From assembly GCA_016432325.1 (NCBI GenBank), contig CP066684.1:416001-480000 (forward strand): a stretch of DNA of 64,000 nucleotides, in the 5' to 3' direction. Both the position numbers and the translations under genes were made by a program. Below the pieces are notes generated by a model. That model was not told the DNA's origin, did not search any database, and saw nothing but the letters and a program-made list of their open reading frames with translations. Source of the DNA: Candidatus Aenigmatarchaeota archaeon. GTDB lineage: Archaea > Aenigmatarchaeota > Aenigmatarchaeia > PWEA01 > JACQIF01. This document shows positions 248 to 51,637 of this stretch, one piece after another (positions within the stretch are counted from its first letter, which is position 1; each line of letters begins with the position of its first letter).

Positions 248-3200
248 ATGGGTATTGGCACACGCGTTGCGACAGCTCTGATACTCGTTCTCGTAATAAC
301 GCCGTCGCTCGTGCTGGCCGCCGACACGAACAGCGGGCCTTTCAGGGGGGACGCGTTCCTGAAGATATCGGAGGACCTGACGCCGACGGACGCGGTCTTC
401 TACAAACTGACCACCGACCTTACAGAAGGTGCCGCCGCCGACCCCGAAAACAACGACTGGGACTTCAACGCCGCCGTGAACGTAACGGTTCACTTCCTCA
501 ACGCAACCTCTGGCACGCCTCCTCCTATACCCAACGGCGGCGCCACCGACATTTTCAGGATAGAACTCTACTACGACAACACGACAACGGCCGATCCAGT
601 TGCTTTCCTGTACAACGCACTGGTTCCGCCAGTCAACGACACGAACTTCACGTTCATGGTGTACGCCCGCGGAGCCAACATCTCAGGCACCACGGCCAAC
701 ACTCCATTCGCCCTCGTGGCGCCCAATGATACCACTCTGTACGCCAGCTTTCAAAAAAATGGCCCTTCGGTCGCCAAGAGCACGGACAGCGGGACGACGT
801 GGACTGTAGATCAGGTCAACAAAAGAGGCAACACTGGCATAACACAGATCCGGTTGGATGCCGTCAACACGACTCTCGTCTACATCGCTTACGACGATAA
901 TCCCAACAAGTCTGTCGAGGTGGCGAAGACGACGGACGGCGGGACGACGTGGGCCATAACTAACAACAGCAACCCCGTTGCGACGAGCGGCACCACGACA
1001 ACAAGGCTGTCCATGGACGCCTTCAACGACACCGTGGTCTATCTGTCGTACAAAGACGGAACGGACAACGATCTGAGAGTGATGAAGACGACGGACGGCG
1101 GGACGACGTGGGCCACGACCAACGGTAGTAGCCCAGTAGATTCTGCAGGGGATGTCGGTTCGGACAGTTCCATCATCGCAATCGATGCAAACACAGTATA
1201 CGTGGCGTATCGATATACGACAGAGGCAGATCTAAAAGTGGCGAAGACGACGGACGGCGGGACGACGTGGACGATAGCGAACAACAGCTTCCCTGTCGAT
1301 CAGATCGGCGGCCAAGAGACTTCAATCTCCGCGCTGGATGCCAACACGGTATTTGTAGCTTATCAGAGAGGGAATCCGCGCGGCTTCGGAGTGGCTAAGA
1401 CGACGGACGGCGGGACGAATTGGACCATCCTGAACGGCACAAATTCAATAGACCCCCTCGTTACCGTGCGCTGGACATCCATCCAAGCGATAAGCAACGA
1501 CACGCTCTACGTAGCGTACCAGGACAACACGCATGAAATCGTCAAGGTGGCGAAGACGACGGACGGCGGGACGAATTGGACACTGACGACCGTAGACTCT
1601 TCGTCTGCCATGGGGAGAGGCGTAGGCCTCGTCGCGAAAGACGCTAACAACCTCTATCTGGGCTACCGCGACTTCAACAACAGCCTGGCCAGATTCTCCA
1701 AGACCACGGACGGCGGCGAAGGATGGAGCGGGTACGGGTCCGGTGTCTTCCGTCTCAAGATGCGCGTCCGTTCGGTGACTGGCGCGACCACGGACTACGA
1801 CGCCGACACAGAAGCGGGGATAACCGATGCGACACAGCAGGTAACATACGACTCCACGCGTGCACAGGGCTTTGTTCGCGTAAACACGGGAGTCACGAAG
1901 TTCACCTCATACAAAGATATCAACTACACGCAGAACGAAACGCGCTTCATGCGCGGCGAAACCGTATACATGAAGGTCAATACTAACGCGGCCGCGTGGA
2001 ACGAGACCGGTGCCGAAAGCATGCGGCTTACGCTGACAGGTCCCACAACGACCCTTGTGAGTTTCCCTTTCAACCTCACGCGAAACGACAACGCCTATAG
2101 ATTTAATTGGACAATGCAGTCAGGCGTTGACCTTAATGACTACGATGTCGTGCTGAACGTTACGGGCAACACGAGCGCATTCACATCTGGCGACCTATGG
2201 ACGCAATTCAACTCCTCAAGCGTCGGCTTCGTCAACGCAAACAAAACGAACTTCTCCACGACGCTCATGACAGATCCAGACGGCGTGCTCAGCGATACGA
2301 ACGCCTCCTTCTGGGTGGAGGATGGGCTGCGCGTCGCTCAAGACTATGGCCCGCGCCTGAACGGCTCGAACTCGTCTACGATAAACGCGTACGTCCAGCG
2401 CGGTGAGGTAGTCAACGTCTCGTTCATTGTTCTCGACGAGTGGAACCGCACGTTCGCAAACCGCGAGATATTCTGGAACGCGAACACGAGCGGATATGAA
2501 CCCGCGATTGCCCGCGTGAACACGAGCCGCGCCGCGTACGTGGCGTGCGACGGCTACGATACGTCCTTGTCTGTCGTAAACACCACGACCGTTTACGTGG
2601 CCCACAGGAACAGGTGCTCGCTGGGCGTCAAGTTCACCAAGACGACAAACGGCGGCCAGTCGTGGAGCGGCGTGAACGTCTCCACTCTCGGAATTGCGCC
2701 GTCGCTGGAGGCGTTTAACTCCACGCTGATATACGTGAGCTACACAGACGACGAGGATGCCGACAAGTACAAATTCAACGTCTCCAAGAGCACGGACGGC
2801 GGGACGACGTGGACCGTGACGAACAACAGCAACCCCGTAGCCGGACCGGCGAGGCTCGTTGGCCGCTATGGAGACATGGATGTGGTGGATGCGGATACTG
2901 TGTACGTCGTCTACGCCGACAGCGCACAGAACCTCACTGTCGCAAAGACTACCAACGGCGGAACGTCTTGGACGATAACGAACAACAGCAACCCTGTAGC
3001 CGGGGATGCCCGCTCACCAACATTAAGAAATTCTATTGCGGCAGTCAACTCCACGCTGGTTTATGTGGCATACTACGCCAGTGGCAACGATCTCGCCATT
3101 GCGAAGACAGCCAACGGAGGCACATCATGGAACGTGACGACCGTGGACTCGGCAGGCGATGTCGGAGACAATCCGTCCATCGATGTTGTGGACGCCAACA

Positions 3201-4414
3201 CGCTATACGTCAGCTACTACGACAATACCAACGATGACCTGAAGTTCGCGAAGACCACGAACGGAGGGATTACGTGGTCTGTGCAGACATTGGACTCCGC
3301 GGGTAGTGTCGGCCAGTACTCGTCTCTCGACGCGCTGGACGCGAACACGATATACATAGCGTATTACGACGGCGACAACGCGGACCTGAAGGTGATAAGG
3401 AGCGTCGACGCGGGCCAGACGTGGAACATATTCCCAGACGGGACAACCGTGGACGCCGAGGCAGGCAACATACAGGTCGGTCCTGAACCATCCATCATTC
3501 TCGCCTCTGACAGGGCCGCGTGGATAAGCTATAACCGCTTCGATCCCGCGGGCTCTGCCGGGGAATATCTAAAGGTCGCGCGTCTCAACCTCACGCGGTT
3601 GCGCGTCACTGACGCCAACGGTCGCGTAACCGACAACATCACTGTCGAATCCAACTGGACAGACACGTATGCGTCGACGACGCCCGGACAGACGGAAACG
3701 CGAGACTACGCGGTCCACGCTCACTTCCCCTACAACATCACGTCCGCCGCGCAGGGCGCGTACGGCGAGAACGCGTCGCAGGCGTACGCGTTCGACGTCG
3801 ATTCGCAGTACTACGTCGACACCCACGTGCAGAACACGACGACGCTGAGCAAGGACAATCTCAACGACGACAACGAGCAAACGAGCTATGCGGTAGGCAC
3901 CGATACCGTATACGTCTGGGTCCACGCGCGCAACGTGCGCAGCGAGGAGGCGAGCGGGAAAAGCGCGACGACGTACGTATACGCATCCGGCGGCAGCCGC
4001 GGCGGCGCAGACGCCACGTATACCGGAACGACAGGCTCGGACGGCTGGACAGCCCAATTGGGCAGTTTCGCGGCCGTGTCTCCCTCAGGCACGTGGTACT
4101 TCGATTCGGACGTAACGGGCGACAACAACACGGGAACAGACGCTGAAGCGGTGACGTTCACGATAGGCGCTTTCAGCGTGTCGGGCAAGGTCTTCCACTG
4201 GGCGAACGGCACTGCTGTGAACAGCGTCACTGTTACGGCAGTGCTCATAGATGCAGGCGTTTCCATAGAGACCAAGACCGACACGACAGACACGAACGGC
4301 GCTTTCGACGTCGCCTTCGGCACCACGCCGACAGCTGATAAAGAGTACACAATAAACATCACAGTCGCCAAAGGCTCTCTCGTGTCGTATCTAATCCAGA
4401 GGGTGAGAGCGTGA
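248..4414 (+). CDS. Giant secreted adhesin-like glycoprotein with two BNR/Asp-box beta-propeller regions
   Basis: Sec-type signal peptide; ~13 KT(T/S)(D/N)GGxxW Asp-box repeats in two blocks; very dense N-x-S/T sequons; scaffold paralogous to 10008..13247. Confidence 0.85.
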   Translation: MGIGTRVATALILVLVITPSLVLAADTNSGPFRGDAFLKISEDLTPTDAVFYKLTTDLTEGAAADPENNDWDFNAAVNVTVHFLNATSGTPPPIPNGGATDIFRIELYYDNTTTADPVAFLYNALVPPVNDTNFTFMVYARGANISGTTANTPFALVAPNDTTLYASFQKNGPSVAKSTDSGTTWTVDQVNKRGNTGITQIRLDAVNTTLVYIAYDDNPNKSVEVAKTTDGGTTWAITNNSNPVATSGTTTTRLSMDAFNDTVVYLSYKDGTDNDLRVMKTTDGGTTWATTNGSSPVDSAGDVGSDSSIIAIDANTVYVAYRYTTEADLKVAKTTDGGTTWTIANNSFPVDQIGGQETSISALDANTVFVAYQRGNPRGFGVAKTTDGGTNWTILNGTNSIDPLVTVRWTSIQAISNDTLYVAYQDNTHEIVKVAKTTDGGTNWTLTTVDSSSAMGRGVGLVAKDANNLYLGYRDFNNSLARFSKTTDGGEGWSGYGSGVFRLKMRVRSVTGATTDYDADTEAGITDATQQVTYDSTRAQGFVRVNTGVTKFTSYKDINYTQNETRFMRGETVYMKVNTNAAAWNETGAESMRLTLTGPTTTLVSFPFNLTRNDNAYRFNWTMQSGVDLNDYDVVLNVTGNTSAFTSGDLWTQFNSSSVGFVNANKTNFSTTLMTDPDGVLSDTNASFWVEDGLRVAQDYGPRLNGSNSSTINAYVQRGEVVNVSFIVLDEWNRTFANREIFWNANTSGYEPAIARVNTSRAAYVACDGYDTSLSVVNTTTVYVAHRNRCSLGVKFTKTTNGGQSWSGVNVSTLGIAPSLEAFNSTLIYVSYTDDEDADKYKFNVSKSTDGGTTWTVTNNSNPVAGPARLVGRYGDMDVVDADTVYVVYADSAQNLTVAKTTNGGTSWTITNNSNPVAGDARSPTLRNSIAAVNSTLVYVAYYASGNDLAIAKTANGGTSWNVTTVDSAGDVGDNPSIDVVDANTLYVSYYDNTNDDLKFAKTTNGGITWSVQTLDSAGSVGQYSSLDALDANTIYIAYYDGDNADLKVIRSVDAGQTWNIFPDGTTVDAEAGNIQVGPEPSIILASDRAAWISYNRFDPAGSAGEYLKVARLNLTRLRVTDANGRVTDNITVESNWTDTYASTTPGQTETRDYAVHAHFPYNITSAAQGAYGENASQAYAFDVDSQYYVDTHVQNTTTLSKDNLNDDNEQTSYAVGTDTVYVWVHARNVRSEEASGKSATTYVYASGGSRGGADATYTGTTGSDGWTAQLGSFAAVSPSGTWYFDSDVTGDNNTGTDAEAVTFTIGAFSVSGKVFHWANGTAVNSVTVTAVLIDAGVSIETKTDTTDTNGAFDVAFGTTPTADKEYTINITVAKGSLVSYLIQRVRA
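926..1579 (+). repeat. Five near-identical 27-bp Asp-box cores (AAGACGACGGACGGCGGGACGA(CG/AT)TGG) at 926, 1085, 1244, 1397, 1553
   Basis: Direct reading; spacing 159/159/153/156 bp. Confidence 0.9.
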
Positions 4415-18274: not shown

Positions 18275-21200
18275 TTACCCATCGGCGAGGGGGATGTCGC
18301 CTGTACGGGCCCGGCGGCCGGAGCCTATGCGCAGCGTGTGCGGCACCGAACCGCCGGCTTCCACGCCCACATTGCGGAAGCTGAACACCTCGAAAACGGC
18401 CTGAGCCGTGTCTGTCAGGGCATCCGTCGAGTTCACGAAGACGTCCATTATCCAGTCGCCTTCGTCAGGACCTTCGGGTATCGTGTAGTTGTATTCGTAC
18501 AGATAGCCATCTTCTCCTGACACGCTCACCTGCGAAATGTTCGTCATCTGGGATATGTTAACGAACTTCGTGCCGTTCACGGACGTTATGTTCAGGAACG
18601 CGCGGTCGATGAGGTTGCGCGTCGACGAATGCGTTATCTGGCTGCGTATCGTCACGACCTCCTGCTCTTCGAAGCTGACCTGGCCGACGAGCTGGTCGTT
18701 GTAGGTGTTCAGCGACTGGATGGTCAGCGTTACAGAGACGGCGCCCACAGTGAATGTTACTGTCGCGTTGCCTGAATTGCCGTCAAACGTAACCGTTGCG
18801 TTGGTTCTCCACGTTCCCGTGTCCGTCGTATCTGTGAAACGGAAGTCCGTCTCGTTGAAATAGCCTGTTGAGTTAGTGGTCGTGAAGACATGGTCGTGTT
18901 TGACGTACGAAGGCGTGGCGTTCTGCAGGCTCAACGTGATGTTGCGCGTTGAATTCTCCGCCTGCTCTGCGCCCAGAGCGAACGTCGGATCAGGGAACGT
19001 GTACGAACGCACGACGTAATCGTCGACCCATCCGTTGTAGAAGTTCGTGCCTGCGGCGCTGCCTATCGTGCGGTACTCTATCTTGTTCCAGGCATTCTCT
19101 ATGTCGCTGGCTGTCGCGCCCACAGAGGCGTTCTTCGTCGCCAGAAGGTCTCCCGTGTCGTTGTAGACGTAGAGCATTACATGCGTGGCGTTGAGCGAGG
19201 CTTCCAGATAGCCCTGGAAAGGCGAGTCGCGCGTGTCCGTCCCTGACACGGCTGACGCGCCCACGACGTCGTCATCATCCACCCTGCCTTCTACGTCGAC
19301 ATCAAGCGCGGCCTGCCTGCCCGTCGCGTGCGCGCGCAGCTTGTCCGGTACCGCATCCACGGACTCGACGAGACCGAAGAACGCTTCAATGTCCGCTGGA
19401 GTGAGGCCGCCGTTCGTTATGGTGCCGTTGAAGTGGAATCTTGTCGAGTTGCCGCTTACCGACGAGGACAGCGTCTGCTCGCGCACGAGCGGGGTCGCGA
19501 CAGGACATTCGTTTCCGGTCTGATTGAACTCTATCCGTTTGTCTGTGGAATTCCACCTTATGTACGAGTTGGTCGGGCTGCACGTGGCGGCCGGCGTCGC
19601 CAGCGAAGGGTCTGCGTCGTACGCGTCGTAGAACGCGAAGACGTTCGTGCCGTTGCTCTTCGATTCGGCGGCCGGATAACCGTAGTACATCGTCATCACG
19701 CGCGTAGAGGACGCGGGTATCGTAGGCATCTTGACCCAGATTTTCGTCGTCGTGCGGTTGGTCGTCGTTTCTATCCAGTACGACAGCTCTGCGCCGTCGG
19801 CATCCACGAACCTGACGTCAGAAGCGTTCGCGTTGAGCTTTCCGGCGCTCGTCAAACTCTGTGTGTTTATCGTCAGCTGTACGGGATGGTTCGTGCGCGC
19901 GACGGTGCTCCGGGCGTTCGATACGGTGATGTTTTGCCTGTACTCGAAACTGTGGTTCCACCAGAATGGGAACGTGAGGCTCGAAGCCGACGTGCCGTTG
20001 GCGAAGCGGACGCGAACGTCCATGCTTGTATTGGAAGGTACGCTGTATGGATCCACGTTGTTTGATATCGTTATCGTCAGTTCGTCCGTATACTTGAACG
20101 CGTTAGACGTCGTTTCGTCGAACGTGTTGCCTCCTGACCCCGTGGAGTTGATGGCCACGGTGCTCCAGTTGCCAAGCTGGTCGTCTGCGGCGAGAGTGTA
20201 CGACGTATGGTTCAGCCATCCGTTGTTGAACCCGACGAGCAGGTCGCTCTTCACTGTCGCCGAGGGGTCGCGTATGCGCACGCGGCCCGTTCCGGCGTTC
20301 ACGTACTGTCCCCGGCCGCCTGTCAGGCGGTAGTCTATCTGCGGACTGGGGCCGCCGCGATTGAAGACGTCCACGGGTATCGTGGTCGCGTTGACATAGT
20401 ACTGGCTGTCGATGTCCAGCACGTTCGTGGCGTTCGCGTCGTTGCCGTTCACGGCGCTGCTCGTGGTGCCTCCGTCATAGAAACGCGCGTCATACTGCCA
20501 GCTCTCGTTCAGGCCTGGCGTGTTGTTCGTGTATGTGTCGTTCGGGGCGCTTCCTGTGTTCACGTTCATAACGGCGCTGAAGCGGCCTGTCGTGGCGCTG
20601 ACAGAAGAAGTGTTCTCGAAGGCGCCGTTGCCGTAAGTGAAATTGAACAGCTGCACCGTCAGCGTTCTGGACGCATCGCCCGTCGGACTCTTGATTCTGT
20701 AGGTCCCGCCGTCCGAATGGAAGAGGATTGCCGTGATGTTTATGGTCTCGTTCTTGTTGTATATTTTCAGCGGCGTCCCGGTGGTCTCGCCGTAGATGTT
20801 GTTCTCCACGTTGGACGTGGCATTAAGGATTATCGTGTTGTTGACGACGAAGGTGGAGCCCGTCGCCTCTGCCATTGTATTGTTGAAATTGAAGGTCAGG
20901 TTTGCCGCTACCACGATGTGCTTGGCGGTCCATGTGCCCACGGCGTCTCCGTTGGGCGTTGTCCTGTCCCAGTTGATTGTCACGCCCGTATCGTTTCCCG
21001 TCGTCAGGTTCGTATTGTATTGCTCGGCGTTTGAAGGGTCATAGAGACGGACTGTCACGGAGGCGTTGATGCGCGGGGCATCATTGCGCGCGCCGACTAT
21101 CGTGGCGTTGATGCGATTGATGTCGCCCCTCATCACATCGCCAAAGAGCCTCGCGTCCGTGGAGTAGTACAGGGTGCTGTCGACGTCTACGTACGTGAAT

Positions 21201-22702
21201 GATGTCTGGTTTTCAATGTAGGCCCCCAACGCAGGATCCGTGGTGGTGTTCGGATAGTGTATGTGGAAAGCGTACTCTTTGCTCTCGTCCGTTCCGGGCG
21301 ATGCGCTTGCGTACGAATCCCCGCAGTCGTTTGCGATGCGGTCCGACCTGACGCCTGTGCCGCCGCTCGAGTTCAGGGCGACCGACGCGTTCAGCGTGCA
21401 GTGGCTCGTTGTAGTGTTCATCTCAACGCGCACGCTCCGCGCGCCAAGGCCCCTTCCCCAGGCGTCGCCGAGAATGAAGCTGTATTCCAGCGGCTCTCCC
21501 CTGTTGAGGGTCTTGTTGAGAACCGTAACCACATTTCTTGCCCTCGGCATTCCGGCGTCCATCACGAGCGTCAGGGTCTTCTCTACCCAGAAAGCGGCGG
21601 CCCTGACAGGCGAGCCGCCGGGCGCCAGGTCGGTCTGTATCGGCACCTCGCTCGCCGTCTGATTGACGAATCCCACGCCTGTGGAGGAGAAGTTCGTCCA
21701 CGACTCCCCGAGAAGCCTCGAGTTCGTCGAAAGATTCAGCGTCACGTTGTAGTCCTGCAGCGCCGCCGATTCAGGCATCGCCCAGAACACGCGGAACGAC
21801 TTGTTCGTGGAGTTTACGGCCAACGGCGACCTGAAGACCTCATGACTCGTCCTGTTGTAAACCAGAAGCGTCATGTTGGCCGGCGCGGCGGACCAGTTGG
21901 CGTTGCCTGTCGGAATGCTCGCGTTGGCGCTCAGGTTGAACTCCATATACACCCTGTCGCCGAGGACGAACTTCTTTTCCGCGGCCAGAAACGTGCTGTT
22001 GGCTGTCAGCAATGACGTCACATTGGCCCTTGCCTTTATCCAACCGACCGTCTGTTTGGACTTCTCAAACTGGCAGTCCGCACCCGGCACCAGACCGAAC
22101 GACGTGTCTGTCTGGTCCGAATCGCCGTGCCAGTCTTCGGCTTCTATGGCGCCGCTGGTGGAGACGACCATCACTGCCATGCGGAACGTGCCCGTATGGT
22201 TCAGGCCCGTTATCCACGCGCTTGTGGAACCCGTCCTGTTCCATGCGTTTATTTTGCCGAGGTCCGCCGTCCCGCTCACAAAATCCGTTCCCGTCCCGAC
22301 AGTAATCTGGGTCCTGTTGTACGCGTAGAAGGTGCCTGTCTTGGGGACTCGCCACCACGTACCGACCGTATCCTTCCACTGACTGCTCATGTTTACGTCG
22401 TCCCACAGGAGGGCAGACGTCACGTAAAGGTTTCTCGTCGTCGCGGACTGTTCAATGTTGTAGGACAGGTTGAAATCCGGATTGTCGTTAGCGTTCCAGT
22501 CGCTCTGTCCGTCGTCCTGTATGAACCTTACCTGAGCCTCGAAACCGCAGGCTGCCAGTATGTTCGAGACGTTCGCTGTCGCGTTCGCGGGCACCGCCGT
22601 GACTCCGTTATACGTAGCGGCCGACACGTCATGCGCAAGCATGATAAAAACGAAAGAAACGACGACGACCGCCAAGATAGAACGTCCGGAACCCATTTCC
22701 AC
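18275..22702 (-). CDS. Giant secreted surface protein with DUF2341-like domain and Ig-like repeats; distant paralog of the two other adhesins
   Basis: Signal peptide; WWN.SFEYRQNITV...DVRFVD..G.ELSYWIE...KIWVK.P.I...MYYG (DUF2341-like); shared GTFRM, GDRVY, GESWTNFS, FWVE, NRGE, DVDS.YY motifs. Confidence 0.82.
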   Translation of the reverse strand: MEMGSGRSILAVVVVSFVFIMLAHDVSAATYNGVTAVPANATANVSNILAACGFEAQVRFIQDDGQSDWNANDNPDFNLSYNIEQSATTRNLYVTSALLWDDVNMSSQWKDTVGTWWRVPKTGTFYAYNRTQITVGTGTDFVSGTADLGKINAWNRTGSTSAWITGLNHTGTFRMAVMVVSTSGAIEAEDWHGDSDQTDTSFGLVPGADCQFEKSKQTVGWIKARANVTSLLTANSTFLAAEKKFVLGDRVYMEFNLSANASIPTGNANWSAAPANMTLLVYNRTSHEVFRSPLAVNSTNKSFRVFWAMPESAALQDYNVTLNLSTNSRLLGESWTNFSSTGVGFVNQTASEVPIQTDLAPGGSPVRAAAFWVEKTLTLVMDAGMPRARNVVTVLNKTLNRGEPLEYSFILGDAWGRGLGARSVRVEMNTTTSHCTLNASVALNSSGGTGVRSDRIANDCGDSYASASPGTDESKEYAFHIHYPNTTTDPALGAYIENQTSFTYVDVDSTLYYSTDARLFGDVMRGDINRINATIVGARNDAPRINASVTVRLYDPSNAEQYNTNLTTGNDTGVTINWDRTTPNGDAVGTWTAKHIVVAANLTFNFNNTMAEATGSTFVVNNTIILNATSNVENNIYGETTGTPLKIYNKNETINITAILFHSDGGTYRIKSPTGDASRTLTVQLFNFTYGNGAFENTSSVSATTGRFSAVMNVNTGSAPNDTYTNNTPGLNESWQYDARFYDGGTTSSAVNGNDANATNVLDIDSQYYVNATTIPVDVFNRGGPSPQIDYRLTGGRGQYVNAGTGRVRIRDPSATVKSDLLVGFNNGWLNHTSYTLAADDQLGNWSTVAINSTGSGGNTFDETTSNAFKYTDELTITISNNVDPYSVPSNTSMDVRVRFANGTSASSLTFPFWWNHSFEYRQNITVSNARSTVARTNHPVQLTINTQSLTSAGKLNANASDVRFVDADGAELSYWIETTTNRTTTKIWVKMPTIPASSTRVMTMYYGYPAAESKSNGTNVFAFYDAYDADPSLATPAATCSPTNSYIRWNSTDKRIEFNQTGNECPVATPLVREQTLSSSVSGNSTRFHFNGTITNGGLTPADIEAFFGLVESVDAVPDKLRAHATGRQAALDVDVEGRVDDDDVVGASAVSGTDTRDSPFQGYLEASLNATHVMLYVYNDTGDLLATKNASVGATASDIENAWNKIEYRTIGSAAGTNFYNGWVDDYVVRSYTFPDPTFALGAEQAENSTRNITLSLQNATPSYVKHDHVFTTTNSTGYFNETDFRFTDTTDTGTWRTNATVTFDGNSGNATVTFTVGAVSVTLTIQSLNTYNDQLVGQVSFEEQEVVTIRSQITHSSTRNLIDRAFLNITSVNGTKFVNISQMTNISQVSVSGEDGYLYEYNYTIPEGPDEGDWIMDVFVNSTDALTDTAQAVFEVFSFRNVGVEAGGSVPHTLRIGSGRRARTGDIPLADG

Positions 22703-23323: not shown

Positions 23324-24133
23324 TCAGCTCTTGGGAATATCCTTGGTCTTCGCCATGACGGTCGTGTTCACCCAGATTTTCTCCACGGGGTCCACGCGCA
23401 GCGACGAATTGAAGCCGAAGACGCGGCCAACCGTTATGTTCACCGTGTTAGCCGAGCCTGTGAAGTTTATCATGTAGACGCTCGTTCCGGTGCGGGAAAC
23501 GGAGCTTGTGAATGTGCGGTTCAGGACCGATATGTGCAGGGTCATGTTTCCGGACGTTTCGGATATCGTGGATATGTTGGCCGCGGAAACGCCTGACGTG
23601 AGCGGCACCACAAAGACCTCATAACGGGTGATGAAGTTCGCGCTCGTATCCTTCTGGAGAACGCTTATGTTGTTCTTCGCAAAGTCCGAATAGTTGTAGG
23701 CGGCGTTCATGCCTGTTATCGTGAAAAACGACTGGTTGGCCGGAACGCTCGCATTGAAATCCAGCGCGTATGAAAGGTTCATCTGGTCGGCCAGGAAATC
23801 GCGGTAGGCCTTGAACGACACGTTATAAGGCTGGACGCGCGGCGCCTTGTCGGTGAAGTTCACGAACGTATGGGTTCGATTGGCCGTGACGCGAACGCCG
23901 ACATCCGCGAGCTTTTGCACGTGCGAGCCCGCGTAGAGGAACGCCTGCGGGATGCCGATGTCCTCGCTTGTGGCGAGTTCGAGGTCGCTGGCAAAGACCC
24001 TGTAGTTGGTCAGAAGCGAAACAAGCGAGACGGCTATGAGGACGGACATCAATGTGAAAACGATTCCCTTTGCGACGTTTTCAGTCTTCCCTCTTCTTCG
24101 GGAAGGCGTAAAGACTATTCCGCGCCGGCTCAC
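23324..24133 (-). CDS. Pilin-like protein (class III signal peptide, duplicated GIVFT motif)
   Basis: RRGIVFT-13aa-GIVFTLMSVLIAVSLV. Confidence 0.75.
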   Translation of the reverse strand: MSRRGIVFTPSRRRGKTENVAKGIVFTLMSVLIAVSLVSLLTNYRVFASDLELATSEDIGIPQAFLYAGSHVQKLADVGVRVTANRTHTFVNFTDKAPRVQPYNVSFKAYRDFLADQMNLSYALDFNASVPANQSFFTITGMNAAYNYSDFAKNNISVLQKDTSANFITRYEVFVVPLTSGVSAANISTISETSGNMTLHISVLNRTFTSSVSRTGTSVYMINFTGSANTVNITVGRVFGFNSSLRVDPVEKIWVNTTVMAKTKDIPKS

Positions 24134-24621
24134 AAGGACACCCCGAGACGGACCTTGGCTATGGCCGTCATGTTCTTCACCTGCGACGACGCGGATTCGT
24201 TGACCATTATGGGAACGGGCCTGGACGCGTATACCGCGTCCCTTTCCTCCGGTATCATATTGACCGTCAACGTGCGGTCGAACGTGAGCCCGCCGGTGGG
24301 CGTTACGTTGAAATAGTCCACGATGAACGCATAGCGGACAAACGACGGCAGCGTCTGGTTCACAGTGGCGTTTATCGCGTCCGCGTTCCTCGAGTCGAAC
24401 GCGCCTCTCTCCTCCATCACGGCCAGCGTGTCGATGGACATGCGTTCGAGGACGGCCTCGCTTCTCGACGGCTGTTCGACGGTGAAGGAGAACGACAGGA
24501 TTGCAAAGGCTATTATGGCCGCGCCGATGAGCGAATCGACTGTGAAGACAAAGCCCTTTGTGCTGTTTTCAAGCTTCCCGCGCTGCGCTTGTGAAGCAGT
24601 AAAAACAAAGTTTTTGTCCAT
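24130..24621 (-). CDS. Pilin-like protein (class III signal peptide, duplicated FVFT motif)
   Basis: KNFVFT-13aa-KGFVFTVDSLIGAAII. Confidence 0.78.
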   Translation of the reverse strand: MDKNFVFTASQAQRGKLENSTKGFVFTVDSLIGAAIIAFAILSFSFTVEQPSRSEAVLERMSIDTLAVMEERGAFDSRNADAINATVNQTLPSFVRYAFIVDYFNVTPTGGLTFDRTLTVNMIPEERDAVYASRPVPIMVNESASSQVKNMTAIAKVRLGVSL

Positions 24622-24622
24622 G

Positions 24623-25249
24623 TCATGGCCTCCACAGCGTCACGCGCAGAGTGCAGTTGCGCGAATTCTCCGTCATCACGTAGCGGTCTATTGAAATCTG
24701 TTCCTTGGCGCCCGCCGGCTGGGCGCCTACTGTCAGGTTCGTGGACTGGACCGTGCAGTTGGAGCCGCCGCTTGTCAGCAGCTGCACGTAAAGGCTGTTT
24801 GGTCCTGTCGAGAGGTTGCCGCGCAGGTCTTTGGCCGTCATCCGCGTCAGCGCGATGAGCTTGTCATCCGCAAGGCGATGGTCTCCGTATGCCAATCCCA
24901 CGCTCTTGATATTCGTCGAGTTGTACCAGCCGTCGGGCTCTCCTGACGTAAGAACGAGCTGGTCGCTAAGCCCGATGAGCCTGTCCTGCGTTCTCCTGAA
25001 CTCCTCGGAGTCTGCCACGGAATGGGATATGGAAGACTCCGCGTGCAGGACGCCCGCTATCGATATCGTGAATATGACAAGCGCCAACACGACGTCCAGA
25101 GAGACGGCCTGTCCCTTTCCCGACAGAAGGAGGGAAAACTGAAACCGCGTTTCAGATTTTCCTGCCCCAAGGGCGGGAAAATCGTTCGCACGCGGCGAGG
25201 CCGCGGCCCCGCCGTCTTCAGCACGTCTGCACATTCGTACCGTCCGCAT
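24623..25249 (-). CDS. Pilin-like protein; start uncertain, leader filled with hairpins
   Basis: KG/QAVSLDVVLALVIF; TSGEPDGW motif. Confidence 0.72.
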   Translation of the reverse strand: MRTVRMCRRAEDGGAAASPRANDFPALGAGKSETRFQFSLLLSGKGQAVSLDVVLALVIFTISIAGVLHAESSISHSVADSEEFRRTQDRLIGLSDQLVLTSGEPDGWYNSTNIKSVGLAYGDHRLADDKLIALTRMTAKDLRGNLSTGPNSLYVQLLTSGGSNCTVQSTNLTVGAQPAGAKEQISIDRYVMTENSRNCTLRVTLWRP

Positions 25250-25796
25250 TCCAGCACTTCACCTCTATATTGTCACCCGTGTTGTTGACGTTCACGAGCG
25301 CCGTTCTCAGATCCGCGTCCTTTACCTTCGCCGTTATCAGTCTCGCCGATATTATAAGGGTCTCGTTCCTCGGCCCCGGCCACGTCATCTCCACCTTGCG
25401 ATATTTGCCGAGAACCTTGAACGTGGTCGCGTTCTGCACTCCCGCCCGGGCGGCTACCGTGATGTTCGTCTGGAAGCCCTTGCCGCCTATGGCCGCGGCG
25501 TCGATGGCGCCGGACACCTTCTCCACCTCGCGCTGCGCCGCAAACTGCTGGCGCGCCTTTTCGACGTTCAGGTTGCGTTCGTTGAGGGAAAATAATATGA
25601 TTGAAGCGAGAACAAGGACGATGCCTGCCACGACCATGAACTCGATCCCTGTTTGCGCCTTTCCCGTGCACGAGAAGCTTCGCTTCTCGGCATGTTCGGC
25701 CTTCGGGCCGAACTTTTCGGACCGAGTCCGAAAATGTCGGGACCTGTGGGTCCCGTACACCCGCAGGAGGGAAACCGTTTTCACATTCAATACCAT
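25218..25796 (-). CDS. Pilin-like protein (Q+1/E+5 class III signal); leader contains four-hairpin element
   Basis: KA/QTGIEFMVVAGIVL; start placed at ATG 25796. Confidence 0.78.
   Translation of the reverse strand: MVLNVKTVSLLRVYGTHRSRHFRTRSEKFGPKAEHAEKRSFSCTGKAQTGIEFMVVAGIVLVLASIILFSLNERNLNVEKARQQFAAQREVEKVSGAIDAAAIGGKGFQTNITVAARAGVQNATTFKVLGKYRKVEMTWPGPRNETLIISARLITAKVKDADLRTALVNVNNTGDNIEVKCWNADGTNVQTC
25667..25759 (-). mobile_element. 93-bp four-hairpin palindromic element, in frame
   Basis: Same scaffold as 8118..8213 with different stem sequences; flanked by CGGG on both sides (coding strand). Confidence 0.75.
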
Positions 25797-25800
25797 TAAA

Positions 25801-26262
25801 TTACCCCGCAGACGGCCTGAGGCTCTGCACCTCAAGCGTATAGTTCATGGCAACAGAGCCTCCCGAACCGCCCTGGCTGACTCCCCTGAAAACGTACGTG
25901 CCTGCCGCGCCGGGCAGCGTCCCCGTAACGTTGCAGGCAGTCGTCGCCGTCACCGCGCTTTCCGCGTCCTTCGACGTCAGTATCAGCTTTATCGTCCTGT
26001 TGCCTATAGAGCTGGCCATCAGGTTAACCTCCCGCGGAATGTAGACGTCCCTGCGCGACGTCGTGTTTTTCGGCGCCGTGCACAGGAAATTCGCCATGTC
26101 CGCAAGCTCGTTCGCGGCCACGCGCGCCTCTGCGACGCGCAGCGAGGCTGTCTGGTTCGCGAATAGGTTCAGGGAAGTCGCGAGCACCACGACCAGCGCC
26201 GCCGTCAGGAAGACCGCTAGCATCATATACTCTACGGACGTCTGGCCGGCGCGCGACTCCAT
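25801..26262 (-). CDS. Pilin-like protein (Q+1/E+5 class III signal)
   Basis: RAG/QTSVEYMMLAVFL; own TTTTATA box ~21 nt upstream. Confidence 0.82.
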   Translation of the reverse strand: MESRAGQTSVEYMMLAVFLTAALVVVLATSLNLFANQTASLRVAEARVAANELADMANFLCTAPKNTTSRRDVYIPREVNLMASSIGNRTIKLILTSKDAESAVTATTACNVTGTLPGAAGTYVFRGVSQGGSGGSVAMNYTLEVQSLRPSAG

Positions 26263-26300
26263 GTGCTAGATTGGAGGGCCTCATATAAAACCGCCCGGCC

Positions 26301-26711
26301 TCATTTGGCCGTTATGTTCACGGCCGTCGCTTCACGTTCGACCTCGAACGCGTAAGTACCGCCTACCGACGGCAGGCTGCCGTTGAGTTCGCATCTCGAC
26401 GTGGCCGACACGAACTCGAGCCTGTCCTTGTAGCGCAGGGCGAACGCGACTGTCCTGTTGGCGACGGAACTGTTCATTGGGTCAATGTGAAGCGGTACGG
26501 GAAGCAGTACCTCTGTCTTCGAACCTTGCGGCTGAAGGCATATCTCGTTGGCCGCGTCAGTGAGCGACGTAACGGTAAGCCGGGCCTGGCTCAGCGAGCC
26601 CTCAAAGGAGCGGCCGCCCATGAAGTCTGCGGATATGAAGAACAGCACCGTGAAGAGCAGCGCGCCGATGAGGGAGATGGAAATATATTCTATCGCGGCT
26701 TGCGCTTTCAT
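26301..26711 (-). CDS. Pilin-like protein (Q+1/E+5 class III signal), paralog of 25801..26262
   Basis: MKA/QAAIEYISISLI; shared AN..C..P...C...G.LP...GTY.F pattern. Confidence 0.82.
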   Translation of the reverse strand: MKAQAAIEYISISLIGALLFTVLFFISADFMGGRSFEGSLSQARLTVTSLTDAANEICLQPQGSKTEVLLPVPLHIDPMNSSVANRTVAFALRYKDRLEFVSATSRCELNGSLPSVGGTYAFEVEREATAVNITAK

Positions 26712-26750
26712 GACCAATCTAAGGCCGTCCCCGTATAAAACGGCCCGTCA

Positions 26751-27371
26751 TCAGTCCGTCTGGGCTCTGGCCTTGAGTGTCGTCGACGGCGCATAGATGA
26801 CGTTCGTCTCGGTATCGGTGTAGTTGAATGTCAGCTTTACGGAGTAGATGCCTCCTATGCTCTTGGTTATGCCGTGAAGCGTCGTGTTTATGGGCAGGAC
26901 CCGCGTCGCCGTCTCTCCGGGGAACAGTGTTGCAGGCGTAACGTTCGTCACCAGTTGCGTCAGCGTGGACTTGTCTATTTCTGTTACGTTAATCGAATTG
27001 AGCGTTATCTTGTTGGCGCCGTTGTTTTGGACCACCACGGTGAACGTATCGTTGACGTTGTCCCCGCCCGTAACGCCCCATTTGTGGCCGATGACTGCCA
27101 GCTGTTCGAACTGTTGCGAAAGCGACGAACCCGAGCTTGACAAGGAGAATCCTATATCGCCTATGTTGAGGCTGAAGATGGCCACGCCCACGATAACCAC
27201 TATGGCGATGGCCCACGCGTAGTTCATGAGATACTCGATGGCGGCCTGTCCGCGCCTGTTCCCCGACGGTATCTCAACACCACGCCTGCTGGCGCGGTTC
27301 ATTAGATACTCGATGGCGGCCTGTCCGCGCCTTTGCATTTGCCGTATTGGTTTTCCTGCCGTCCTTTTCAT
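26751..27371 (-). CDS. Type IV pilin (GQxAIEYLMNYAWAI family) with duplicated cleavage motif
   Basis: RRGQAAIEYLMN occurs twice; start placed at ATG 27371. Confidence 0.85.
   Translation of the reverse strand: MKRTAGKPIRQMQRRGQAAIEYLMNRASRRGVEIPSGNRRGQAAIEYLMNYAWAIAIVVIVGVAIFSLNIGDIGFSLSSSGSSLSQQFEQLAVIGHKWGVTGGDNVNDTFTVVVQNNGANKITLNSINVTEIDKSTLTQLVTNVTPATLFPGETATRVLPINTTLHGITKSIGGIYSVKLTFNYTDTETNVIYAPSTTLKARAQTD
27222..27332. repeat. 36-bp direct repeat (1 mismatch) with 39-bp spacer
   Basis: 27222..27257 and 27297..27332. Confidence 0.95.
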
Positions 27372-27412
27372 AGTAGCCGTCAACATTTCAGAAGAACAGA
27401 ATAAAAAGACGC

Positions 27413-27943
27413 TCAGCCTGCCTGCACCGTGCCCGTGAAGTTCCTCGAAGGTTTGAATGTCAGGCCGCTCACGTCGTCTATGTACGATACGGTTACTTGT
27501 ATCTCGTACGACTGGCCTACGTTTCCGCATCTGATGCCCCTGCCGCCTGTGGACGTGTTCCTGCATATCTGAGTCTGCCCTGGGAATATGTCAGGCGTAC
27601 CTGTGCAGTCCGTGAGGACCGTCGAGCTCTCGTTGCTGGCGTTAAGGTAGATGTCCTTTATCTGCCCGGCGCCGTTGTTCTGCACGGAAACGGAGAAACG
27701 ACCTTCGCTGTCGCACAGGTAGCCCACGACCGCGAGCTGTTCGCCTGCCTGCGTTATCTGGGAAGACTGCGACGTCAGGGAGTTGCGGATGCCTCCTATA
27801 TTGAGCTGGAAGATGGCGATGCCGACGATGATTATGAGAGCTATGGCCCACGCGTAGTTCATTAGGTATTCGATGGCAGACTGTCCCTTCGGGGAGGGAC
27901 GCCTGTTGTCGTGGGGTTTGTTGGCAGAACGCATACTCTTCAT
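27413..27943 (-). CDS. Type IV pilin (GQSAIEYLMNYAWAI family)
   Basis: KG/QSAIEYLMNYAWAIALIIIVGI; paralog of 26751..27371. Confidence 0.88.
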   Translation of the reverse strand: MKSMRSANKPHDNRRPSPKGQSAIEYLMNYAWAIALIIIVGIAIFQLNIGGIRNSLTSQSSQITQAGEQLAVVGYLCDSEGRFSVSVQNNGAGQIKDIYLNASNESSTVLTDCTGTPDIFPGQTQICRNTSTGGRGIRCGNVGQSYEIQVTVSYIDDVSGLTFKPSRNFTGTVQAG

Positions 27944-51516: not shown

Positions 51517-51637
51517 CCTTTCCACGCTTACCACCGTGTACGAGAACCAAAGGTTCTCGGCATGTCGGAAACGTTTGCGTTTCCGTACACGGTGCATGAA
51601 ACTGCCGTTTCATACCGCCTTTTCCACGCTTACCACC
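51517..51637. repeat. 20-bp perfect direct repeat enclosing a two-hairpin element (51537..51589) and a third hairpin
   Basis: CCTTTCCACGCTTACCACCG at 51517 and 51618. Confidence 0.92.

Follow-up and report, generated by a model that had tools for sequence, protein, structure and literature searches.

The locus studied here raises the question of why two neighbouring prepilin-like genes carry the codons of their signal peptide cleavage motif twice, with a short insert between the copies. The genes are located in a window of 64,000 nucleotides, which is the whole stretch of DNA analysed (positions 416,001 to 480,000 of contig CP066684.1), in the genome, here called G000, of a tiny archaeon from groundwater. 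This genome is a single contig of 875 kb, 90% complete, and its nearest named relative is a Ca. Aenigmarchaeota MAG. Both genes belong to a cluster of prepilin-like genes, with putative pilus assembly genes upstream of the cluster. The window also encodes two very large surface-type proteins, at 18275–22702 (1475 aa, with DUF2341 and MG2 domains) and 248–4414 (1389 aa), and both of their genes adjoin a pilin cluster. A 25-nt repeat with a TATA-like core, 80% identical between its copies at window positions 26279–26303 and 26729–26753, lies just upstream of two successive prepilin genes.

Gene A (23324–24133, minus strand) encodes a prepilin-like protein of 269 aa, with the class III site KG/IVFT, a 22-residue leader bearing the insert, and orthologues P0004–P0007. 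Gene B (24130–24621, minus strand) encodes 163 aa, matches DUF7262 weakly and belongs to a widespread family of archaeal prepilin-like proteins. Class III signal peptides are recognised by a [KR][GA] processing site, after which comes a hydrophobic H-domain (PMC4371748). By motif and hydropathy, both genes present this site with the hydrophobic stretch behind it at the downstream copy only, and a peptidase A24 gene is present in G000. The downstream copy is the predicted working cleavage site in both genes. Since the insert lies in the cut-off leader and doubles the cleavage code behind itself, the mature pilus protein should be unaltered by it.

In gene A, all features being on the minus strand, the upstream target copy (RGIVFT, 24107–24124) is without an H-domain behind it. 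It is followed by an insert of 36 nt (24071–24106), which corresponds to a 39-nt unit less one codon, and by the downstream copy (KGIVFT, 24053–24070). The insert contains an inner hairpin, CTTCCC..GGGAAG (24086–24105), whose family also occurs at genome positions 27955, 525235 and 657786, and an inverted copy of the target end, TGAAAAC (24077–24083), able to pair with either target copy. Over the GIVFT codons the arrangement is GGA ATA GTC TTT ACG, 39 nt, GGA ATC GTT TTC ACA; the four differences are all synonymous and at third positions, and the period is 54 nt with 18-nt copies. In gene B, also on the minus strand, the upstream copy (KNFVFT, 24598–24615) has lost the Gly at -1, the insert has 39 nt (24559–24597, with the hairpin at 24573–24597 and the inverted target copy at 24565–24571), and the downstream copy is KGFVFT (24541–24558). 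The period is 57 nt, and the copies differ by four synonymous changes and one non-synonymous codon (AAC/GGC).

Both inserts are in frame, and repeat finding placed them in one family (D5, 77% over 39 nt). The doubled motifs and related inserts are exactly as the initial annotation described them, including the CTTC..GAAG stem followed by TGAAAAC in both. By themselves the inserts fold modestly (z of -1.4 and -1.8), and an Rfam search of the window gave no match. Contigs from four runs of the source study, which are not independent of the assembly, agree with 24053–24615 without differences.

That the inserts are insertions of a related mobile sequence, as had been proposed, is borne out by orthologues with empty sites. 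Related Aenigmarchaeota lineages cover all four filled and empty combinations: both genes are filled in G000, only gene A in G001, only gene B in L010 and L011, and neither in L012/L165 or in the outgroup G026. At the empty sites no pre-existing hairpins were found. Five orthologous inserts align as one 39-nt unit, with one codon missing in gene A of G000 and a nested 21-nt hairpin in gene A of G001; each of the five starts directly behind the Thr codon and keeps TGAAAAC. Their stems covary (ACTTC/GAAGT, GCTTC/GAAGC and GCTTT/AAAGC), with compensatory change at two pairs. As had been suggested, the inverted copy can pair with both target copies: 93% of the cells are paired with closure on copy 1 and 97% with closure on copy 2, a weak measure counted over five related sequences. 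Since the tree of the orthologues is unresolved (supports 47–62), gains could not be counted against losses. Of 371 genomes of the phylum, two contain the exact prepilin pattern, and both belong to the genus of G000.

What was inserted in genes A and B is a small, non-autonomous hairpin element, copies of which have spread in the Aenigmarchaeota genus of G000. The gene B inserts are 25–28/39 (64–72%) identical, with four-fold sites near saturation (0.28–0.52), which indicates that the inserts are constrained or younger than the split of the species. The exchange of pilin cassettes through such insertions, also proposed initially, left no sign: the mature parts are plain orthologues, and the motif is doubled in none of the 116 other gene B family representatives with a recognisable motif.

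Other prepilin genes present comparable insertions. A third event in the pilin cluster of the window (27222–27332, minus strand) consists of 36-nt copies (RRGQAAIEYLMN, 35/36 identical) around a 39-nt insert with a hairpin and the inverted copy TGAGATAC. The G001 orthologue of window gene 26751–27566 is filled with a hairpin of the gene A/B insert family, placed on IEY codons. A loose end at 27254 is not an empty allele but the filled allele of the G001 type. In the leader region of prepilin 24623–25249 there are stacked hairpins (25110–25235, minus strand, z -2.8), and the leader of prepilin 25218–25835 bears an in-frame nested double-hairpin array (25655–25800, minus strand, z -7.2); each of the two is missing in three orthologues. 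Outside the window, the prepilin at genome position 711816 carries, at 711862, a gene A/B-type hairpin between 22-nt identical copies of the SGQFF codons, with a matching inverted copy. The G001 orthologue of this gene (L032) has one GQFF motif and a leader, MKGIGKTENH, resembling the 3' half of the insert peptide, which may be a remnant. A further prepilin, at 546690–546815, has KGISP doubled, with three synonymous differences, around nested hairpins.

Within the gene A/B hairpin family the inverted copy changes with the target, being TGAAAAC on VFT codons, TGAAAAACT on QFF codons (711862) and TGAGATAT on EYL codons (G001). In the four prepilin cases the sequence just before the insertion is YTCAYN or differs from it by one base, and the inverted copy begins with TGA. 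This suggests that the inverted copy is composed of a short constant seed and a remainder matched to the target. The subfamily occupies seven sites, in four prepilin genes and three non-pilin places, two of the latter directly behind TATA-like boxes.

A targeting of prepilin cleavage codons had been proposed initially, and for this subfamily it holds, since the codons are enriched among its sites (4/7). It does not hold for the process, which has left the same footprint at start codons, at TATA boxes and at the ends of tRNAs. Strong hairpins in general are found near 8 of 41 prepilin sites and 106 of 859 other gene starts, with no significant enrichment (p=0.22), and in mid-gene at 21 of 501.

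Genome-wide, the insertions leave a common footprint. Its order is the target (10–29 nt), a bulge of 1–2 nt, a shared hairpin, 5–9 nt of the target's reverse complement, a spacer and the target again; the inverted part is the reverse complement of the 3' end of the target, and the period is mostly 45–64 nt. The full architecture was found 17 times (15 loci) in G000, against 0, 1 and 0 times in three Markov nulls. Among 87 family hairpins, 20 have the footprint, and none of 600 planted controls has it. Nine of these 20 cases are at most 20 nt from a start codon, which is re-created in the second copy, and seven are at tRNA or tRNA-like ends. Among the latter, the events at tRNA-Pro 25037 (ARAGORN) and at 683126 and 830059 (Rfam) were confirmed by tools, and a fourth weakly by relaxed ARAGORN; the remaining tRNA-like ends were called by reading of the sequence. 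Further cases double a TATA box, and nine loci are flanked by exact repeats of 14–22 nt. A non-pilin example in the window (51517–51637, plus strand) has exact 18-nt repeats, with a period of 102, around hairpins and an inverted target copy.

A near-constant hairpin is found on many different targets, with its own matched inverted copy at each. In the cases at start codons, tRNA ends and TATA boxes the hairpin closes on the non-working copy, in sense at 5' ends and in antisense at 3' ends. Two thirds of the strong hairpins of G000 are intergenic, and tandem hairpin clusters number 68, compared with 6 in a Markov null. For the commonest hairpin 26 strand matches were counted in G000, and none of 370 other genomes has more than three; the burst is therefore specific to this lineage. 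Our literature searches found no description of a footprint of target, hairpin, inverted copy and target.

Other observations were made in the same scans. A separate class of double hairpins inserts without a long repeat. A 50-nt double hairpin at genome positions 649173–649222 (L179) lies in the region of the archaeal RNase P RNA (Rfam, E 7e-4), is missing at that place in G001 and has no long target repeat. At 321247–321340 a start-codon region is present three times in series, with an inverted copy each time, and G001 has there one unit without the inner hairpin. With default settings ARAGORN called merely 12 tRNAs in G000, several of them doubtful, and missed many tRNA-like ends, possibly owing to extra or non-canonical introns.

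An enzyme for these insertions was searched for in several ways. Family searches of G000 gave no match for Y1 transposase (PF01797), reverse transcriptase, IS110, resolvase, GIY-YIG, Cas1 (PF01867), TnpB zinc ribbon or HNH, and neither G000 nor G001 has a GIY-YIG gene. The two tyrosine recombinases of G000 (289344 and 783238) are unlinked and far from the inserts, and a FEN1-family gene is present. Scans with hairpin patterns, which are exact and for that reason insensitive, gave one unrelated match in a metagenome collection and none in a genome collection; in a viral collection the 45 matches are about the number expected by chance in a rough estimate, and by eye none has the architecture. 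No larger element with the same ends was found by these scans in the three collections, and a search for related loci returned nothing. Contigs of the four source-study runs, which drop rare forms, contained neither joints nor an empty allele. A larger cognate element or recombinase, which the first reading of the locus led one to expect, thus did not appear in the family searches and pattern scans.

In the region 782962–784149 of G000, a tyrosine recombinase lies beside a tRNA-like 5' end that bears a hairpin insertion, and small hypothetical genes come after it; the region is possibly an integrated island. Locus L106, on a 1-kb contig (C108 of G013) from another family of the same order, has a small GIY-YIG gene with related hairpins on both sides, whose core is GAGCGAAG; it is a candidate autonomous element of the Ssn type.

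The explanation that we consider probable is a non-autonomous hairpin element that inserts by fold-back synthesis, survives where it rebuilds a gene end and is lost by slippage. A single strand would likely be cut behind the target, and the short tail of the donor hairpin, TGA in the prepilin copies, would pair with TCA at the target end. The complement would then be extended by fold-back synthesis, and the new strand would re-anneal 10–30 nt upstream, so copying the target once more. Insertions would survive where the second copy rebuilds the end of a gene: the start codon with its ribosome binding site, the TATA box, the tRNA end or the class III cleavage codons. In the prepilins, the in-frame insert would sit in the leader taken off by the prepilin peptidase. 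Loss of the element by slippage between the repeats would produce the patchwork of filled and empty sites, and such a precise loss of repeat/inverted/repeat structures has been demonstrated in E. coli (PMC13334657). Against this explanation stand the following points: no mobilising gene was found in a single-contig genome that is 90% complete; older copies differ mainly at third positions; the gene B inserts are less diverged than the near-saturated four-fold sites; and the poorly supported species tree allows no count of gains and losses.

The third-position bias was the basis of an initial claim that recoded copies mark the insertions from their birth. The bias itself stood. It amounts to 19 of 24 differences over eight pairs, a figure inflated by peptide-based detection and by the shared ancestry of the pairs, and to 12 of 14 in the pairs identified through orthologues (p=0.006 against 50%). 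Such a bias is not expected if copy 1 decays neutrally. In the G001 IEY pair there are seven third-position differences, even though copy 1 is out of frame with a period of 77 nt. The claim about birth did not stand: three events have copies that are identical or 35/36 identical, and the youngest are identical over 18–22 nt, so recoding is not required when the insertion is made. One of them is gene B of L010, with identical copies over 18–19 nt. In addition, the residues typical of a gene are always present in both of its copies (I for gene A, F for gene B, SGQFF at 711862 and QAS in G001), which indicates that the duplication is local.

The same data bear on the alternative that hairpin, inverted copy, spacer and second copy travel as one unit, which brings in a diverged replacement of the motif. 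Sites would then be chosen by base pairing, in homing between strains or paralogues, and the synonymous differences would date from birth. The inverted copy does fit copy 2 better than copy 1 in every diverged prepilin pair except that of G000 gene B. In the G001 IEY pair, copy 1 resembles the G001 paralogues (25/30) and copy 2 the copies of G000 (26/30), with 20/30 between the two. The same units are re-used at targets of like motif (TATA 757306/850343 and 526976/852917; 314644/515923; 178691/802653), and the four prepilin sites among the seven of the subfamily also fit. However, the copies are identical at gene B of L010 and, over 22 nt, at 711862, where the motif is quite different; residues specific to the gene are common to both copies, including a derived Ala-to-Ser change present in both G001 copies; and the process is not pilin-specific, with no recombinase-bearing form found. 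We regard a travelling unit as unlikely. The third-position bias, the re-use of units and the identity of the inserts nevertheless keep alive either a carried replacement copy or a use of both copies.

Such a use is the core of another alternative, in which the insert is a functional switch or removable unit, by DNA excision, removal at the RNA level or ribosome bypass, and both copies are selected as peptide. The motif [KRS][GA]-x is kept in copy 1 in all cases except one, the amino acids of the out-of-frame G001 copy are kept, the two hairpins are mutually exclusive and covary, and conservation is higher in the insert than at four-fold sites. On the other hand, TATA boxes and other sites that are not translated have this footprint too, orthologues manage without the insert, and no joint is present in the contigs of the four runs, which would drop rare forms; as most prepilin inserts are in frame and without a stop, removal is not needed. 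We judge this alternative quite improbable. A bulge-helix-bulge intron was rejected, since the two copies could not be cut at corresponding points and the TATA cases are untranscribed.

A small inverted triplication by template switching at replication, with no element at all, would fit the repeat/inverted/repeat outline (PMC13334657) and the failure to find a transposase, but it is very improbable, and the sharing of hairpin families already speaks largely against it: the inverted local sequence is only 5–9 nt, the inner hairpin does not come from the site and recurs at unrelated loci (72 GAAAC hairpins in G000 against 7 in a shuffle), the period is narrow and a FEN1-family gene is present.

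The fold-back hairpin element can be set beside known systems. Integrative elements with a replacement gene fragment insert by tyrosine or serine integrases at tRNA or protein genes, and they resemble the present case in that the gene end is rebuilt upon insertion and empty sites exist. Here, in contrast, the insert has about 40 nt, no recombinase lies within or beside it, the targets are many and unrelated, and young copies are identical. Elements of IS200/IS605 and their palindromic non-autonomous derivatives use a hairpin in single-stranded DNA as substrate and are not known to make a target duplication; their choice of target by short base pairing is a plausible parallel. Unlike these and the REP/RAYT elements, the insertions studied here have flanking repeats of 10–29 nt, and no Y1 transposase or TnpB domain was found in G000.

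The double-hairpin elements and GC clusters of fungal mitochondria are small, nested hairpins, conserved in structure and variable in sequence, sometimes in frame. They are organellar, and we know of no enzyme and no target-matched inverted copy for them. A MITE of a DDE insertion sequence would have terminal inverted repeats and a short target duplication of fixed length, whereas here the repeat length varies (10–29 nt) and the target itself takes part in the outer stem. Off-target integration by Cas1, or a casposon, would need a cas1 gene, for which G000 gave no match (PF01867).

A close resemblance is with Rickettsia palindromic elements and codogenic REPs, short dispersed hairpins located mostly between genes and sometimes in frame at N-termini, which are mobilised in trans or by an unidentified enzyme (PMC3733652). 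A dispersed palindrome family with copies apparently read in frame within genes, as in RPEs, is also what we found. By inspection there is no GTAG/CGTC tag as in REPs, and no RAYT/Y1 gene; the target repeat of 10–29 nt and the inverted copy matched to each target also set the present insertions apart from RPEs and REPs, and the terms 'target site' and 'duplication' do not appear in the text of Di Nocera et al. 2013 (PMC3733652). The small GIY-YIG single-stranded DNA nucleases Ssn, with their NTS/SRM hairpins, are similar in that short hairpin repeats would be recognised as single-stranded DNA and an IS-like spread has been suggested; duplication is not mentioned in that text (PMC11893778). The SRM pattern is not enriched in G000 (2 against 4–9 in shuffles) and is missing from inserts A and B, by a strict regular expression that also missed the hairpins of the L106 GIY-YIG gene. 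One small GIY-YIG gene with flanking hairpins was found, in G013 of another family, and none in G000 or G001. Small inverted triplications share the direct repeat, inverted copy and direct repeat, fold-back priming and precise loss by slippage, but their whole insert is local with a median of about 150 nt, whereas here a foreign shared hairpin is present and the period is about 45–64 nt (PMC13334657). The insertions are best read as those of an element of the REP, RPE or MITE type whose inverted copy is, unusually, matched to the target.

A bolder proposition, which we hold as tentative and rather doubtful, is an undescribed class of minimal mobile DNA of about 40 nt that picks or rewrites its own short guide by base pairing and rebuilds its target, sometimes with a synonymous replacement. 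Subfamilies would specialise on prepilin codons, TATA boxes and tRNA ends, and the enzyme would be outside the known recombinase and transposase families.

The insertion process described here is real, mobile and polymorphic, and it is not a pilin-specific recombination system. The insertions explain the long, odd leaders of prepilins and the doubled starts of genes, which would mislead annotation. The footprint is clean and quantifiable and fits no mobilising enzyme found in G000, and it suggests that DPANN archaea have an undescribed insertion chemistry or a partner that acts in trans. Should the matched inverted copy serve as a guide, this would be a very small insertion system targeted by base pairing.
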